Assembly: GCF_003334335.1 (NCBI RefSeq)
Contig: NZ_QOWQ01000001.1
Origin: Escherichia coli
GTDB taxonomy: Bacteria > Pseudomonadota > Gammaproteobacteria > Enterobacterales > Enterobacteriaceae
Direction: 5' to 3' (one strand)
Length of the DNA stretch: 64,000 nucleotides
How positions within the stretch are numbered: the stretch's first letter is position 1; each line of letters begins with the position of its first letter. A program made the translations under genes and the position numbers. The notes under the pieces were generated by a model. The model saw only the letters and a list, made by a program, of their open reading frames with translations. It was not told the DNA's origin and searched no databases. This document shows positions 43,109 to 64,000 of this stretch, piece by piece.

Positions 43109-44422
<1,314 letters not shown>

Positions 44423-44441
44423 GACTGACTTTATCTGATTT

Positions 44442-44472
44442 AAAAATGCCAGCCTCCGGGCTGGCATTTTTT
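44442..44472. terminator. Rho-independent terminator between convergent eno and ygcG (likely bidirectional)
   Basis: aaaaatgccagcc tccg ggctggcattttttat: 10-bp stem flanked by an A-run and a T-run. Confidence 0.7.
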
Positions 44473-44481
44473 ATGGTTGAG

Positions 44482-45354
44482 TTACCAGCGGCCGGATGCG
44501 CCGCCACCTCCAGAAGAACCGCCCCCGCCGCTAAATCCGCCGCTATCTGAGCCTCCAGCGGAACCGCTGTTGTCTGAATGATAACTTCTACCAGATGCTC
44601 TTTTCTGAAGTACACATAAACAGGTAAAGACCATAAATATGGTGAAAGTAAAAAAGAAGGAAAATACAGCAATGGAAAAAATTTTATCGGAGAACAGGAA
44701 TAAATCTAAAAGATAGATTGCTGAAATACAGACTCCACTTTTACATGCGCGACAAAAATTACTGCCTTGATGAAAAAACCAGAAAGGGAAGAACATCACT
44801 GCAAATACCCAAAAAATAGCAAAGTAATAATGATCACTGGAAGACGCTGATTCACTTTCTGAAGGATTAGTCGGATATTGGTGTTGTGAAGTGAGTTGGT
44901 TATTCAAAGCGTTTATAGCTAGCTCTAATCCCTTAGCTAATTTTTGTTGTTTAAATGCGGGTATCATGTTGCTACGGATGATATCTCCAGCCAGAGCATC
45001 GGTTACCTTTTCTTCCAGCCCATAACCTACCTGGATGCGGACAGTGCGATCCGACCAGGCAACAACGATCAGTATCCCATCATTACGTTTGGCATCTCCT
45101 AAACGCCAATTGTCAAAAACTCTTGTAGCATATTGTTCAATTGTCTCGTCTTTGGTTGTGGGAACAATTAATACGGCAATTTGCACTTGGGTATTATTGA
45201 AAATAGATTCTAACTTGTGCGTCAGTTCTTTCTTTTCTTGTGAGTTTAAGCTACTCGTAAGATCCGTAACTTGTTGCTGTAATTGTGGGACAATAGTTGG
45301 TTGGGCTGCAACAAAGGAACATACGAAAGTGAACATTAGTATGAAATAGCGCAT
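44482..45354 (-). CDS. ygcG: TPM-domain membrane protein YgcG with glycine-rich C-terminal tail
   Basis: ORF 44482..45423; probable start [18 protein letters not shown] (signal peptide) at 45354; internal TM segment; C-terminus [24 protein letters not shown]; AT-rich coding sequence. Confidence 0.75.
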
Positions 45355-45646
45355 TATAAATTTCTCATTAAATCTGGATAAATAAATTGACGGCGGCATC
45401 GGTAATTTTATATTCGTTATCATTAAAAACTAATACAGAAAAAATAAATATAATTTTGGTGAATGTTTTGACATGATTAAATCCATTTTCTTTATTTTCT
45501 TCTGACATAATACGTTACTCCCTTTAATTATTAACGATATGTTTCGCATTTTTCTTTAAACCTGCCTGTAACAGAATGTTAATAAGACATGATTGTTGTG
45601 GCAGGATCTGCAATAATTAACAATTATCCACTTCACAGAGAATGCT

Positions 45647-46318
45647 ATGCAGTACCCGATTAACGAGATGTTCCAGACGCTGCAAGGTGAGGGTTACTTT
45701 ACCGGCGTTCCCGCCATTTTTATTCGTTTACAGGGATGCCCGGTTGGCTGTGCCTGGTGCGACACCAAACACACCTGGGAAAAGCTTGAGGATCGGGAAG
45801 TCTCCCTTTTCAGCATTCTGGCGAAGACCAAAGAGAGTGATAAGTGGGGGGCTGCGAGCAGTGAAGATTTGCTGGCTGTCATTGGTCGCCAGGGATACAC
45901 CGCGCGGCATGTGGTGATTACGGGTGGTGAGCCTTGCATTCATGATTTGCTGCCACTGACTGATCTGCTCGAAAAGAACGGTTTTAGCTGCCAGATCGAA
46001 ACCAGTGGTACTCATGAGGTACGCTGCACACCGAATACCTGGGTTACCGTATCGCCAAAGCTGAACATGCGCGGCGGCTATGAAGTGTTGTCACAGGCAC
46101 TGGAGCGAGCCAACGAAATCAAGCATCCAGTGGGGCGCGTACGCGATATTGAAGCACTGGATGAACTACTGGCAACGCTGACCGATGATAAACCGCGAGT
46201 CATTGCACTGCAGCCGATTAGCCAAAAGGATGATGCCACACGTTTGTGCATTGAAACCTGCATTGCGCGTAATTGGCGTTTGTCGATGCAAACACATAAA
46301 TATCTAAATATTGCCTGA
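45647..46318 (+). CDS. queE: 7-carboxy-7-deazaguanine synthase (radical SAM)
   Basis: 223 aa, MQYPINEMFQTLQGEGYFTGVPAIFIRLQGCPVGCAWCDTKHTW. Confidence 0.9.
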   Translation: MQYPINEMFQTLQGEGYFTGVPAIFIRLQGCPVGCAWCDTKHTWEKLEDREVSLFSILAKTKESDKWGAASSEDLLAVIGRQGYTARHVVITGGEPCIHDLLPLTDLLEKNGFSCQIETSGTHEVRCTPNTWVTVSPKLNMRGGYEVLSQALERANEIKHPVGRVRDIEALDELLATLTDDKPRVIALQPISQKDDATRLCIETCIARNWRLSMQTHKYLNIA

Positions 46319-46657
46319 TTAAACATTTATAAGCGTTATAAATGGGTGGAACCTGTAAAGACTTCTACTCATTTATATTGTTTGTCGCCTCTGAAAACTC
46401 CTCCATTTTACCCATCCAGGGCTAATCATTAGCATTCTCTACAAATTCTGTGGCATTAATTTTTCGCTGGAGTGAAAATTATTGCGGTAAAGTTTGGTAG
46501 ATTTTAGTTTGTATAGAGTTATTTTAAATATTTACCTTTTTAATCAATGGATTAAGTGCTCTTTAACATAATGGATGTGTTGTTTGTGTGATACTATAAA
46601 GTTGGTAGATTGTGACTGGCTTAAAAAATCATTAATTAATAATAGGTTATGTTTAGA

Positions 46658-47052
46658 GTGTTCCCCGCGCCAGCGGGGATAAACCGGCAAAAACCGGGCA
46701 ATCGCAAAAAGGCGTAATGTGTTCCCCGCGCCAGCGGGGATAAACCTGTGTTTGCGGCATTAACGCTCACCAGCATTTCGTGTTCCCCGCGCCAGCGGGG
46801 ATAAACCGACGTGGTCATGGGTGCTGCTGTTGCAGAGCCAGTGTTCCCCGCGCCAGCGGGGATAAACCGAGCAGATACACGGCTTTGTATTCCGTGCGCC
46901 CGTGTTCCCCGCGCCAGCGGGGATAAACCGAATAGCAATAGTCCATAGATTTGCGAAAACAGGTGTTCCCCGCGCCAGCGGGGATAAACCGGAGCCTGAC
47001 GAGACTACTGAGGCCGTTCTGTCGAGTTCCCCGCGCCAGCGGGGATAAACCA
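46658..47052 (+). CRISPR. Type I-E-style CRISPR array: 7 repeats of 29 bp, 6 spacers of 32 bp, AT-rich leader on the queE side
   Basis: Repeats GTGTTCCCCGCGCCAGCGGGGATAAACCG start at 46658, 46719, 46780, 46841, 46902, 46963 and 47024, strict 61-bp period; last repeat is the variant GAGTTCCCCGCGCCAGCGGGGATAAACCA; no cas genes in the window. Confidence 0.95.
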
Positions 47053-47522
47053 CCATATAACCCGTTATCTCTTTCTCAAGTTTTTATATTAGCAGTACTT
47101 GTAATAAGCAACATATCCACGTAACACCTCATGTTCAAAATAGTTCTCCATGCCAGAGAGGTTCACAATTATCGATACAAAAAATTAAATTTAATCAAAG
47201 TGTTATTTGTATGATTCTTAAATCGTTAAGAAATTTTAATCTATTATTTTTTTAATATTGAATTAATGCCTGTTAATTTTTTCTTTAGAATAACAGTATA
47301 TTTTTTAAGCTTGTTATTCATTGGTTAAGTAATAAATCTGGAAGTTTGTCTTTGTTTTGAGGCTAATGAGTGGTTTTACATAACCGCCTCTATACGCTGT
47401 TGATGAATAGTTCTTATGAATAAAGATATCCAGTTCATACTTTAAGTGAAAATTGATAAAGTGCGATTCGTATTGTCTTTTATTCTAAAGACATCGAGTG
47501 TAGTTAATATTCCTTGTAAAAA

Positions 47523-47645
47523 CAGGGATAAACCGAACTAGTTAAAGTTTTTATTATGTTCCCTGCATCAGCGGGGATAAACCGGACTTGTTATCATTTT
47601 TTAAGTTGTCGAACTTATGTTCCCCGCGTCAGCGGGGATAACCAT
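47523..47645 (+). CRISPR. Degenerate CRISPR remnant: 2 diverged repeats plus a truncated repeat
   Basis: cagggataaaccg (truncated), atgttccctgcatcagcggggataaaccg (47556-47584), 32-bp spacer gacttgttatcattttttaagttgtcgaactt, atgttccccgcgtcagcggggataaccat (47617-47645). Confidence 0.8.
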
Positions 47646-47690
47646 TCAGGTATGTTCAGGCCGGGCAGTTTCCCGCCCGGCCTTCCTCAC

Positions 47691-49169
47691 TTACGCATTC
47701 GACCAGCTCTGGATCGAATCCACATTCCCCAATTCCCCATGCATCACTTCATACGATTTTTTCAGGATCACATCAGTATGTTTGGTTAGGTCTTTGAAAA
47801 TGCCTTTATTCATCGCGTCGTAGCGTTTGGCATTGCTCTCAATCGGTATAAAGATATCTTTCACGCGAACCATGTTATCGACAGCCGTTGCGTAATCCGG
47901 GTATAGCCCCAGACCTACCGCTGTATTAATCGCTGCCCCCAGGCTTGCACAACCGTTAATGGCGTTACGTCGTGCCGGAAGGTTGAACACGTCGGCAAAA
48001 ATCTGCATAAACAGATCGCTGTTCGAACCGCCGCCAGTAATGATCACATGCTTCGCAAAGTGATTCATTTCATTACACATATTGTCGTAATTGTTCTTCA
48101 GCGTCAGCGCCACGCTTTCCAGTATCGAACGATATATCCATGCGTAATCCATGCTGGAATCAAAGCCGATCATAATCCCGCGTTTGTACGGTTCCCACGG
48201 ATTGGTCAGCCAGTCCAGCACCGTCATCAGACCATTACAGCCTGGCGGCACACAAGAAGCTTTTTTGTTGAGTAAATCTTCCGGTGAAAGATCCTGCGCC
48301 CTGGCATCCTGAATTAACGACTCGCCTAGCATGTCGCGCAGCCAGCTCACCGTCCACATGCCTTTGCGAATACCGTAACCTTCATACAGCAATGTTTGCG
48401 GAATAGAAGACATAATCGGCCAGTACGCTACTGGATCTTTCGGCAGTGCTTTGCCGTTCATCATCAATGCGATGTAAGTGCCAAGAGAAATTACCGCCGT
48501 TTCATCATCCAGTAATCCGGCCCCCAGAGCTTCTACCGGTTTATCACTGGTGGTACAAACAACCGGCAGTCCTGCCGGGAAATGTGTCGCCAGTGCGGCT
48601 TGTGGTGTGATATGTCCGAGGACGGTGCCAGGCATTTGCACATCAAACAGCATATGACGGGGGATATTAAACTTATCCATTACCGCAGCATCTTCGCTCC
48701 ATGCCCAGCTCTTATAATCCACCGGCCACTGACCAAAATAGTTGGCGATATTGTCTTTAAACTCGCCGGTTAAGCGATGCGTCAGATAACCCGAAAAAGA
48801 GGTGACATATGCCACGTCAGGGTTAGTGTGTTCGTAAGGGCGTGTAACGCGTGCATCCTGCCAGCTAATCAACGGCGCAGCAGGCGTGCCATCGGCTTTC
48901 AATAACGCACGGCAGCAACGGATGGATCCCAGACCAATACCGACAATATCTTCTTTATTCCCGGCAAACTGACTCATCAAATCGTGACCGGCAAAACATA
49001 ATGATGCCCATAAATCGTCGTCAGGATGTTCTGCAGTATCGGCATCTGGCGTGTGCATCGGCTGTAATAAGCCTTTGCCTTCGCAAACCACGTTACCTTC
49101 CAGATCGTACATCACCACTTTTGTGCTCTGACTTCCGCCATCAATCCCTATGATGTATTTTTTCGACAT
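47691..49169 (-). CDS. ygcE: FGGY-family carbohydrate kinase, substrate unknown
   Basis: 492 aa, MSKKYIIGIDGGSQSTKVVMYDLEGNVVCEG; FGGY N- and C-terminal domains. Confidence 0.85.
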   Translation of the reverse strand: MSKKYIIGIDGGSQSTKVVMYDLEGNVVCEGKGLLQPMHTPDADTAEHPDDDLWASLCFAGHDLMSQFAGNKEDIVGIGLGSIRCCRALLKADGTPAAPLISWQDARVTRPYEHTNPDVAYVTSFSGYLTHRLTGEFKDNIANYFGQWPVDYKSWAWSEDAAVMDKFNIPRHMLFDVQMPGTVLGHITPQAALATHFPAGLPVVCTTSDKPVEALGAGLLDDETAVISLGTYIALMMNGKALPKDPVAYWPIMSSIPQTLLYEGYGIRKGMWTVSWLRDMLGESLIQDARAQDLSPEDLLNKKASCVPPGCNGLMTVLDWLTNPWEPYKRGIMIGFDSSMDYAWIYRSILESVALTLKNNYDNMCNEMNHFAKHVIITGGGSNSDLFMQIFADVFNLPARRNAINGCASLGAAINTAVGLGLYPDYATAVDNMVRVKDIFIPIESNAKRYDAMNKGIFKDLTKHTDVILKKSYEVMHGELGNVDSIQSWSNA

Positions 49170-49195
49170 GATTTTTCTCCTGTAATTTTCCTGGC

Positions 49196-50473
49196 TTACT
49201 TGCTGCTAGCCATTGCGGGGGCGCTATCAGCAGTACGAATTTTTTGGAACAGCAAAAAGGTAAAGACAATCACCATGCCAAGCGCCGCCATGCCCATCAG
49301 CCACATATTGCGGTAGGCTTCTGCAGCGGGCAGGGTGTCTTGCCAGTGGCCGATAATTGGGTAAACGAAGACATCCGGCAGGAATCCAATCACCGAACAA
49401 ATACCTACCGTGGTGCCCATAATGTAAGACGGTGTTCTCGCTTCGCCAGGGCAGGCCCAGTACAGTCCGCGTGAGGCGTAACAGGTGAATCCCAGCAGTA
49501 AAATCAGGCCAATCCCCATCGCGACCGATTGCGGGTTAGAGTTCGTGACGAGCAGGGCAGTTAACGTCAGCAGGCCGAGTACGGAAAGGATTTGGATCAC
49601 GCGGGTAGGGGATTTCACTTTGCTGTAGGTGGTGATTATGCCGCCAAGTGGGCCGCACAGCGCGCGGAATATTTTGTTGATCACAATCCCCATGTAGCTC
49701 GCCGCCACCAGCGACATGCCATACATTTCGGTCAGATAGTTGGTGGAGTAACTCAGAATGGCGTAGATGGTGAAGACGCCAAAAATCACCATGCTGCAAT
49801 ACCAGGTGGTGCTGATACGCAAAACGGCCAGGATGTCGCTAAGCTGGAATGACTGTTTTTCTTCGTTATTGGCACTGCGCAGGTTGTTGTTATCGCTAAC
49901 AAAAAACCAGCACAGAATCCCCAACAAGATGTAAACCACACTATAGATGATAATGACCGTTTTCAGGCTGGTGCTGTCATCCGGTGCAAAGCGAGAAAAG
50001 ACCCACATGGTAAACACCGCCAGCGACATTACACCGACGCCGCGCAGCCCTTCCATCCAGCCCATAATTTTCCCTTGCTCGCTATGATCGCCAAGCAACG
50101 ATGCAGCTTTAATCGACACCGACCACAGCATTAAAATCGTCGTTATCGCAAAGGCGATCTGAATACAGAGCATTACCCACAGCGGTGGATACGTTGCCAT
50201 TAACAGACCCAGTAATCCGGTAATGATCATCGCGGAAGTAATCATTTTGCGGTGTGAAAATTTATCGGCAATAACGCCGCTGGGGGCATAAAGAATAATG
50301 GCCGCAATACCAAAGGTACTCATTATTAAACCTATCTCGGTATTGCTGAATCCCATAAATTTCGCCATGGGAATTTGATAAATATAACGTAAATAAGCCA
50401 GGTCGAAACTAACGCCGCCGCTAAAACTAATTATCGCGAGGGTTATCCAACGGCGATATGAGTTGTGTTGCAT
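49196..50473 (-). CDS. yqcE: MFS transporter, substrate unknown
   Basis: 425 aa, 12-TM-like hydrophobic profile, MQHNSYRRWITLAIISFSGGVSFDLAYLRY. Confidence 0.85.
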   Translation of the reverse strand: MQHNSYRRWITLAIISFSGGVSFDLAYLRYIYQIPMAKFMGFSNTEIGLIMSTFGIAAIILYAPSGVIADKFSHRKMITSAMIITGLLGLLMATYPPLWVMLCIQIAFAITTILMLWSVSIKAASLLGDHSEQGKIMGWMEGLRGVGVMSLAVFTMWVFSRFAPDDSTSLKTVIIIYSVVYILLGILCWFFVSDNNNLRSANNEEKQSFQLSDILAVLRISTTWYCSMVIFGVFTIYAILSYSTNYLTEMYGMSLVAASYMGIVINKIFRALCGPLGGIITTYSKVKSPTRVIQILSVLGLLTLTALLVTNSNPQSVAMGIGLILLLGFTCYASRGLYWACPGEARTPSYIMGTTVGICSVIGFLPDVFVYPIIGHWQDTLPAAEAYRNMWLMGMAALGMVIVFTFLLFQKIRTADSAPAMASSK

Positions 50474-63652: not shown

Positions 63653-63757
63653 ATGGACAAAAGCCCCAGGCGATATTTCTATCAACCTGAGGCTTACGTT
63701 CGAACCCAAACAATTCGAATGTTAGTCTCTTCTTTGCAGGGAGGCAAGACATGCTGA
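63653..63757 (+). CDS. Mok-like upstream coupling ORF (34 codons) overlapping the hok-like start
   Basis: atg at 63653 to tga at 63755-63757 ([34 protein letters not shown]); stop overlaps the hok-like ATG (acATGcTGA); arrangement typical of hok/sok loci. Confidence 0.4.
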
Positions 63758-63903
63758 CAAAATATGCCCTTGTGGCAATCATAGTGCTGTGTTTTACAGT
63801 ACTGGGATTCACGCTGATGGTAGGCGACTCGTTGTGTGAGTTGAGTATCAGAGAACGTGGTATGGAGTTTAAGGCAGTTCTCGCTTACGAATCGAAGAAG
63901 TAG
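63751..63903 (+). CDS. Hok-family small membrane toxin (50 aa), below the size cut-off of the ORF track
   Basis: [50 protein letters not shown]: N-terminal TM helix, conserved Cys plus C-terminal AYES(K) motif as in Hok/Gef; preceded by GGAGG at about 63741. Confidence 0.7.
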
Positions 63904-64000
63904 CCACCACGCGGGGGTAAAACCCATAAGCGCTAACTTAAGGGTTGAACCATCTGAAGAATGCGACGCCTCGGTGCCTCGTTAAGACGATGCCTCGCGT

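Follow-up and report, generated by a model that had tools for sequence, protein, structure and literature searches.

An Escherichia coli CRISPR-II array probably orphaned by IS186/IS421-driven loss of the cas-E operon

Introduction

A CRISPR array with no cas genes beside it raises the question of whether anything in the cell can still read it. We examined such an array, with seven repeats and six spacers, in a 64,000-nt stretch of Escherichia coli DNA (hereafter the window). In type I-E systems, a leader promoter drives synthesis of a precursor crRNA, which Cas6e cuts at the base of each repeat hairpin to yield 61-nt crRNAs. Cascade loaded with a crRNA then recruits Cas3 against DNA that carries the protospacer beside an AWG PAM, and Cas1-Cas2 insert new spacers where the leader joins the repeats. 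A single cas-E operon, which lies in the CRISPR-I locus between cysH and iap, supplies all these proteins in trans in E. coli.

An earlier note on this DNA had described the array as an orphan that would depend on a distant cas operon, some 17 kb away, as in K-12. Our analysis favors a different answer. With a probability of roughly 0.8, the array, which belongs to the CRISPR-II locus, is in this strain a genuine orphan, an inert relic left after an IS186/IS421-driven deletion of the cas-E operon. The evidence for this model, and for the alternatives to it, is given below.

Results and Discussion

The Array Is the CRISPR2.3 Member of the CRISPR-II Locus

The CRISPR-II locus of E. coli was defined between ygcE and ygcF, the latter being queE, and comprises arrays named CRISPR2.2 and CRISPR2.3 that are separated by 0.5 kb (Almendros et al. 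2014, PMC3903273). The array of the window is this locus, consisting of a leader-bearing CRISPR2.3 and a decayed CRISPR2.2 (Table 1), because the interval 46300-47700 (1401 nt) is 100% identical to K-12-type strains, the flanking genes are queE and ygcE, as the definition of the locus demands, and the RefSeq annotation reads "CRISPR". Its counterpart in K-12 ("CRISPR II" in the K-12 papers, CRISPR2.3 in the naming of Diez-Villasenor and Almendros) is identical in position, leader, repeats, all six spacers, and CRISPR2.2 remnant. The locus was matched in 4585 of the 5426 complete E. coli genomes of the collection. The description of an orphan array in the earlier note therefore holds insofar as the array is distant from cas genes, but not insofar as this was presented as unusual, since the array occupies the standard CRISPR-II site.

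The CRISPR2.2 remnant had been overlooked. It has the same orientation as CRISPR2.3 and stands just before the terminator hairpin of ygcE. Its three repeats (47507-47535, 47556-47584, and 47617-47644), counted by eye against the 29-nt consensus, retain 19 of 29 bases, 25 of 29 bases, and 25 of 28 bases with a one-base deletion, respectively. The two arrays are 454 nt apart and only CRISPR2.3 carries a leader, which is the arrangement expected of CRISPR-II. Whether the inter-array region might be homologous to the leader was considered too, but the score of 29 falls within the range obtained with shuffled sequences (23 +/- 2.7, maximum 32), and this idea was rejected.

Table 1: Features of the CRISPR-II locus and of the right edge of the window (strand + or -, where assigned).
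Feature	Position	Strand	Description
queE (ygcF), left flank	45647..46318	+	223-aa ORF; annotated queE in identical genomes
AT-rich leader 2.3	46319..46657	+	Whole interval from queE to repeat 1; conserved core ~46540-46657
CRISPR2.3 array	46658..47052	+	Seven 29-nt repeats and six 32-nt spacers; transcription from left to right
Spacer 2	46748..46779	+	Resembles HK97-family portal genes from temperate phages of enterobacteria
Spacer 5	46931..46962	+	Exact protospacer in a prophage tyrosine integrase gene, ATG PAM
Inter-array region	47053..47506		AT-rich, 28% G+C
Degenerate CRISPR2.2 remnant	47507..47644	+	3 decayed repeats, spacers of 20 and 32 nt
ygcE, right flank	47691..49169	-	492-aa ORF; annotated ygcE in identical genomes
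hok (Hok/Gef toxin), intact	63751..63903	+	50 codons, downstream of cysH; annotated Hok/Gef in identical genomes
IS186/IS421 (IS4-family), left end	63925..64000		Last 76 nt of the window, which ends inside the element

Repeats and Leader Are Those of a Type I-E Array

The repeats of CRISPR2.3 start at 46658, 46719, 46780, 46841, 46902, 46963, and 47024, with a period of exactly 61 nt. All seven are copies of GWGTTCCCCGCGCCAGCGGGGATAAACCG with at most one mismatch (five exact, two with one mismatch), and the number of copies expected by chance, estimated from 100 shuffles of the window, was 0. The six spacers are all different and each is 32 nt long. The interval 46658-47052 thus has the properties by which a CRISPR is defined, namely three or more direct repeats, uniform in length, with unique spacers of nearly uniform length between them. 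Repeat 2 (ATAAACCT) carries a final T instead of G at 46747, and the terminal repeat at 47024-47052 is degenerate, with the variant GAGTT...ACCA. As RNA, the repeat folds into a 7-bp GC hairpin (-15.2 kcal/mol, z = -3.2). Repeat sequence, period, and hairpin all fit type I-E, the class of the "type 2" repeats of E. coli, in agreement with the type I-E style proposed from the sequence earlier, and the seven 29-bp repeats and six 32-bp spacers had been given exactly, with every spacer read as we read it. Of the extent then assigned to the array, 46500-47052, the end is correct; the array proper begins at 46658, and the 158 nt added by the earlier start belong to the leader.

On either strand, ORFs overlapping the array consist of the repeat translated in rotating frames. 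On the minus strand this produces the recurring motifs GLSPLARGT, RFIPAGAGNT, and VYPRWRGE, and these ORFs had rightly been set aside as artefacts of repeat translation. An Rfam scan of 44000-50000 (E <= 1) reported no CRISPR repeat family. Its only matches were an overlapping pair on opposite strands at 44408-44509, upstream of the CRISPR locus and at the eno-ygcG boundary, both to the sRNA family STnc370. At 31.8 and 28.7 bits they fall short of the gathering score of 54, and we suspect that they reflect a palindromic terminator-like element.

The leader extends over 339 nt from the queE stop codon (46318) to repeat 1 and has 30% G+C, against 51% for the window, so its earlier description as an AT-rich leader beside queE was accurate. 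Over its last ~120 nt it can be aligned with the CRISPR-I leaders found beside cas2 in K-12 and in strain P50, with which it has the blocks TCTTTAA, GTTGGT.G.TTGT, and TTAG in common. This alignment makes it a genuine type I-E leader, and the array consequently shows the two ends of a type I-E array, an AT-rich, related leader on one side and a degenerate repeat on the other. The leaders adjoining CRISPR2.1 and CRISPR2.3 have been reported to carry promoters (PMC3903273), and it is from this literature on the locus that transcription of the array from its leader may be expected. A scan of 46300-47720 with sigma-70 and terminator consensus sequences found no plus-strand promoter in the leader, and sites were no more numerous than in shuffled sequences.

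Two further elements were seen within the leader. The direct repeat mentioned in the earlier note is present as a string (46488-46503 and 46597-46611) but cannot be considered significant, with a score of 25 against 19.5 +/- 3.3 (maximum 34) for shuffled sequences. The IHF consensus WATCAANNNNTTR has one perfect palindromic site (AATCAATGGATTA, found on both strands) at 46542-46554, about 104-116 nt before repeat 1. We did not retain the IHF motif as evidence because it is not enriched in the window (55 found versus 58 expected by chance).

Spacers Are Shared across E. coli and Two Match Temperate-Phage Genes

The earlier note had suggested comparing the six spacers across strains and searching them in databases. 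Of the 5426 complete E. coli genomes, 1701 carry one or more of these spacers, a set identical to that of K-12, and 873 carry five or more. When arrays were partly shared, it was mostly the right-hand spacers that were in common, which fits a leader on the left and acquisition at that end. All the spacer matches examined in E. coli fell in the queE-ygcE locus, including one sampled match that was "unannotated." Beyond one place per genome, 42 extra spacer-bearing places were counted (strains 720632, 23CRST042, and CFSAN061761); these may be duplications of the array or of the region.

Spacer 5 gave the only exact protospacer. In IMG/VR, it has a 32/32 match in IMGVR_UViG_2713896897_000016 (L085 4936-4967, minus strand), preceded directly by ATG. 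The canonical type I-E PAMs are AAG, ATG, AGG, and GAG. The ORF that contains the match belongs to the integrase family phrog_1 (2.7e-62) and is found at the end of a 29-kb IMG/VR contig. This integrase was absent from all 5426 E. coli genomes, where the arrays alone were matched, and spacer 5 is therefore not self-targeting.

When 50,697 phage records and 72,556 plasmids were searched, matches were obtained for spacer 2 only. This spacer aligns with portal genes of Klebsiella and Escherichia phages over 30 bases, 28 of them identical (E = 7e-3), and a variant of it is found in 68 prophage-sized IMG/VR contigs, with 29-30 of 32 bases identical and mismatches at positions 2, 6, and 12. The triplet upstream of these matches is GCG, a non-canonical PAM. 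Taken together, the mismatches and the GCG flank indicate that the true source of spacer 2 is a relative of these phages. In type I-E systems, the last base of the repeat comes in with the new spacer and derives from the PAM. Because repeat 2 ends in T, the PAM of the source protospacer may not have ended in G, and the portal genes related to spacer 2 do carry G at that final position.

Spacers 1, 3, 4, and 6 had no match in the phage and plasmid collections or in IMG/VR scans with every sixth base masked. That four of the six spacers are without an identifiable target weighs against reading the array as a record of past encounters with phages. The two targets that were found are temperate-phage genes, one for an integrase and one for a portal protein. 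This agrees with the view of E. coli I-E spacers as chiefly a record of prophages, which are what the spacers of this species mostly target (PMC10910852).

The Right Edge of the Window Departs from K-12

The window differs from the K-12-type strain used for comparison at 80 positions over 37 kb, and homology ends at 63753. In the K-12-type strain, the last repeat and the start of cas3, in the cas-E2 operon, are 16.8 kb apart, and hok is absent at the matching position after cysH. In the window, by contrast, cysH is followed by an intact hok and then by IS421. Among the arrangements described, the cas-E2 (K-12) type alone lacks hok/sok (PMC3903273). The intact hok marks a non-K-12 (non-cas-E2) arrangement of the CRISPR-I locus. 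The K-12 context assumed in the earlier note, with cas3 just past cysH and a hok-like locus, has to be abandoned for this DNA.

Strain HSP425 has two IS421 copies, and the left ends of both are identical to the final segment of the window, 63925-64000; IS-free genomes match the window only up to 63925. Over its full length, the element occupies L002 36924-38267, corresponding to window position 63923 onward. The element has targeted the GC-rich palindrome CGCGGGGGTAAAACCCCGCG downstream of hok, which is of the GGGG...CCCC type. Both the terminal sequence and the target are thus those of IS186/IS421, the left junction being the one contained in the window. Other genomes have hok-IS186 junctions of this kind, ~90% identical, at hokC/mokC and at hokE, and IS186-family elements therefore recur just downstream of hok genes.

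For annotation, the consequence is that the window should not be read as K-12 and that cas backing of the array should not be assumed.

The cas-E Operon Is Deleted in Most of the Nearest Genomes

No cas genes are found in the 64-kb window, whose content runs from recD to syd (1-26.5 kb) and from syd to cysH-hok (26.3-63.9 kb). The 46 kb on the left of the array and the 17 kb on its right contain none, and the complete I-E set (cas3, cse1, cse2, cas7, cas5, cas6e, cas1, and cas2) is hence missing from the window. This gene content bears out the earlier statement that the window has no cas ORF. The 29-nt palindromic repeat, the 32-nt spacers, the AT-rich leader, and the AWG PAM on the sole exact protospacer are all as in type I-E systems generally. 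What differs is that the window has no cas genes and the genome probably none.

We turned to relatives of the source strain for the arrangement beyond the IS element. An exact match to the whole window was not found among the complete genomes of the collection. EC416 had the top bit score for 39500-64000, at 100.0% identity, and BR1220 and WP5-S17-ESBL-10 tied for 1-25000. The 25 best matches to 39500-64000 were all within a few mismatches of it, and 16 of these genomes were examined. In 14 of the 16, the order is hok-IS421-CRISPR-I remnant-iap, with every cas gene deleted at the CRISPR-I locus; the other two keep only cas3 and fragments, and not one has an intact operon. The cysH-hok-IS421 left junction at the end of the window is identical to that of E. 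coli C and similar strains in which cas-E is deleted, among them EC416, BR1220, ML35, and NCTC9040, and in these four 24.5 kb including the array is essentially identical to the window. E. coli C has the same gene order as EC416, hok-IS421-CRISPR remnant-iap.

The flanks of the IS elements point to the way in which the operon was lost. HSP425, which is 100.0% identical to the window over 39500-64000, has the order hok-IS421-cas3-truncated casA-cas2-part of the CRISPR-I array-second IS421-rest of the array-iap, so that only cas3 remains, along with a truncated casA joined to cas2. Its IS421 after hok is flanked on either side by GGGTAAAACC, which is what a simple insertion would produce, and its second IS421 sits in a CRISPR-I spacer, with the flank GGGGTTTTTCC. 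In EC416, a lone IS421 is bordered on the left by the hok-side flank and on the right by the spacer-side flank, and six CRISPR-I repeats and iap come after it. These hybrid flanks are the signature of an IS-by-IS recombination that removed the eight cas-E genes and the CRISPR-I leader. HSP425 represents the intermediate state. Deletion of cas-E genes by IS186-mediated recombination has been described (Almendros et al. 2014, PMC3903273), and we infer that the window belongs to the cas-E-deleted group of that study, with the reservation that it ends before the far side of the IS.

In the model that we favor, the IS186/IS421 element, which sits directly after hok, on the cysH side of the cas-E operon, would have recombined with a second copy inside the CRISPR-I array, with the loss of cas3 through cas2 and of the CRISPR-I leader. 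The CRISPR-II array would perhaps still be transcribed, but its transcript would stay unprocessed and would serve neither interference nor the acquisition of spacers. What is left would be a frozen record of past encounters with temperate phages.

Could the Array Still Be Served by Cas Proteins?

A point against an orphan array is that the window stops inside the IS, the far side of which is out of view, and that the same left junction precedes different arrangements in other strains. An initial count had been blurred by the paralogous hokC/hokE-IS186 junctions. With two junction-specific queries, the deleted arrangement was found in 278 genomes of the whole collection and the IS421-cas3 junction in 326, which means that slightly more than half of the hok-IS421 genomes keep at least cas3. 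In P50, the complete series cas3-casA-casB-cas7-cas5-cas6e-cas1-cas2 follows the IS, and in 160-11H1 it is nearly complete.

If the source strain resembled P50, the IS421 would be a simple insertion between hok and cas3, and some 18.3 kb to the right an intact cas-E1 operon and a CRISPR-I array would follow. The array would then be functional, served in trans, silent under H-NS and competent once the operon is derepressed, which is essentially what the earlier note had envisaged. The full cas set of P50 and the 326 junctions speak for such an arrangement, as do the leader and repeats, which are intact and identical to those of K-12-type strains carrying the cas operon. Among the nearest genomes, however, an intact operon was never encountered (14 have no cas gene and two have cas3 plus fragments), and neither P50 nor 160-11H1 is among the 25 best matches to 39500-64000. 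We therefore regard service in trans as improbable.

A second arrangement would retain Cas3 after the IS but lack Cascade and the adaptation genes, leaving the array an orphan in practice. HSP425 has exactly this layout at 100.0% identity over 39500-64000, and OZ547038 shows the same match pattern, with Cas3 listed under the match. Being the layout of only two of the 16 nearest genomes, it is unlikely to be that of the source strain, if somewhat less so than a working operon.

The window ends in IS421 and most of the nearest genomes examined lack the operon altogether, and the array is therefore probably a true orphan. On these grounds, the strain very likely has no functional Cascade left, and it is likely that every one of its cas-E genes is gone. 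The operon ~17 kb away on which the array had been supposed to depend probably no longer exists, as in the 14 of 16 nearest genomes that have no cas genes. Any claim about immunity in this strain hinges on the sequence beyond the IS element.

Why Is an Array without cas Genes So Well Preserved?

The same six-spacer array and leader are found unchanged in K-12-type strains that bear cas genes and in strains that have none, and leader 2.3 has been reported to be conserved in strains lacking the cas-E genes (PMC3903273). Both observations could be explained if selection kept the array for some function that needs no Cas proteins, be it that of a regulatory RNA, a docking or adaptation site for cas modules, or a structural or recombination element. 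Such a role would account for an intact array in cas-less lineages, and a docking site would make a re-acquired cas module useful at once. On the other side, the flanking DNA of the cas-less genomes is only ~0.2% from K-12, which leaves little time for decay and explains the conservation of the array without selection. In addition, the adjacent CRISPR2.2 shows that arrays at this locus do decay. A Cas-independent role is thus very improbable, and an inert relic of IS-driven cas-E loss remains the preferred explanation. Nothing in this account is new. The locus, how far it lies from the cas genes, the slow turnover of its spacers, and the loss of cas-E through IS186 have all been published.

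Two minor observations were made in the genomes used for comparison. In HSP425 (L003 37486-40083), the CRISPR-I spacer interrupted by the second IS421 is AGTTAAGAGGGGGTTTTTCCCCACCGTTCAGG, whose GGGGG-TTTTT-CCCC core resembles an IS186-family target. In 160-11H1 (L006 1657-4947), a single ORF of 3291 nt annotated as casA directly follows IS421 at the place where other strains have cas3 (2.7 kb) and casA (1.56 kb), and its length and position suggest an in-frame cas3-casA fusion created by deletion.
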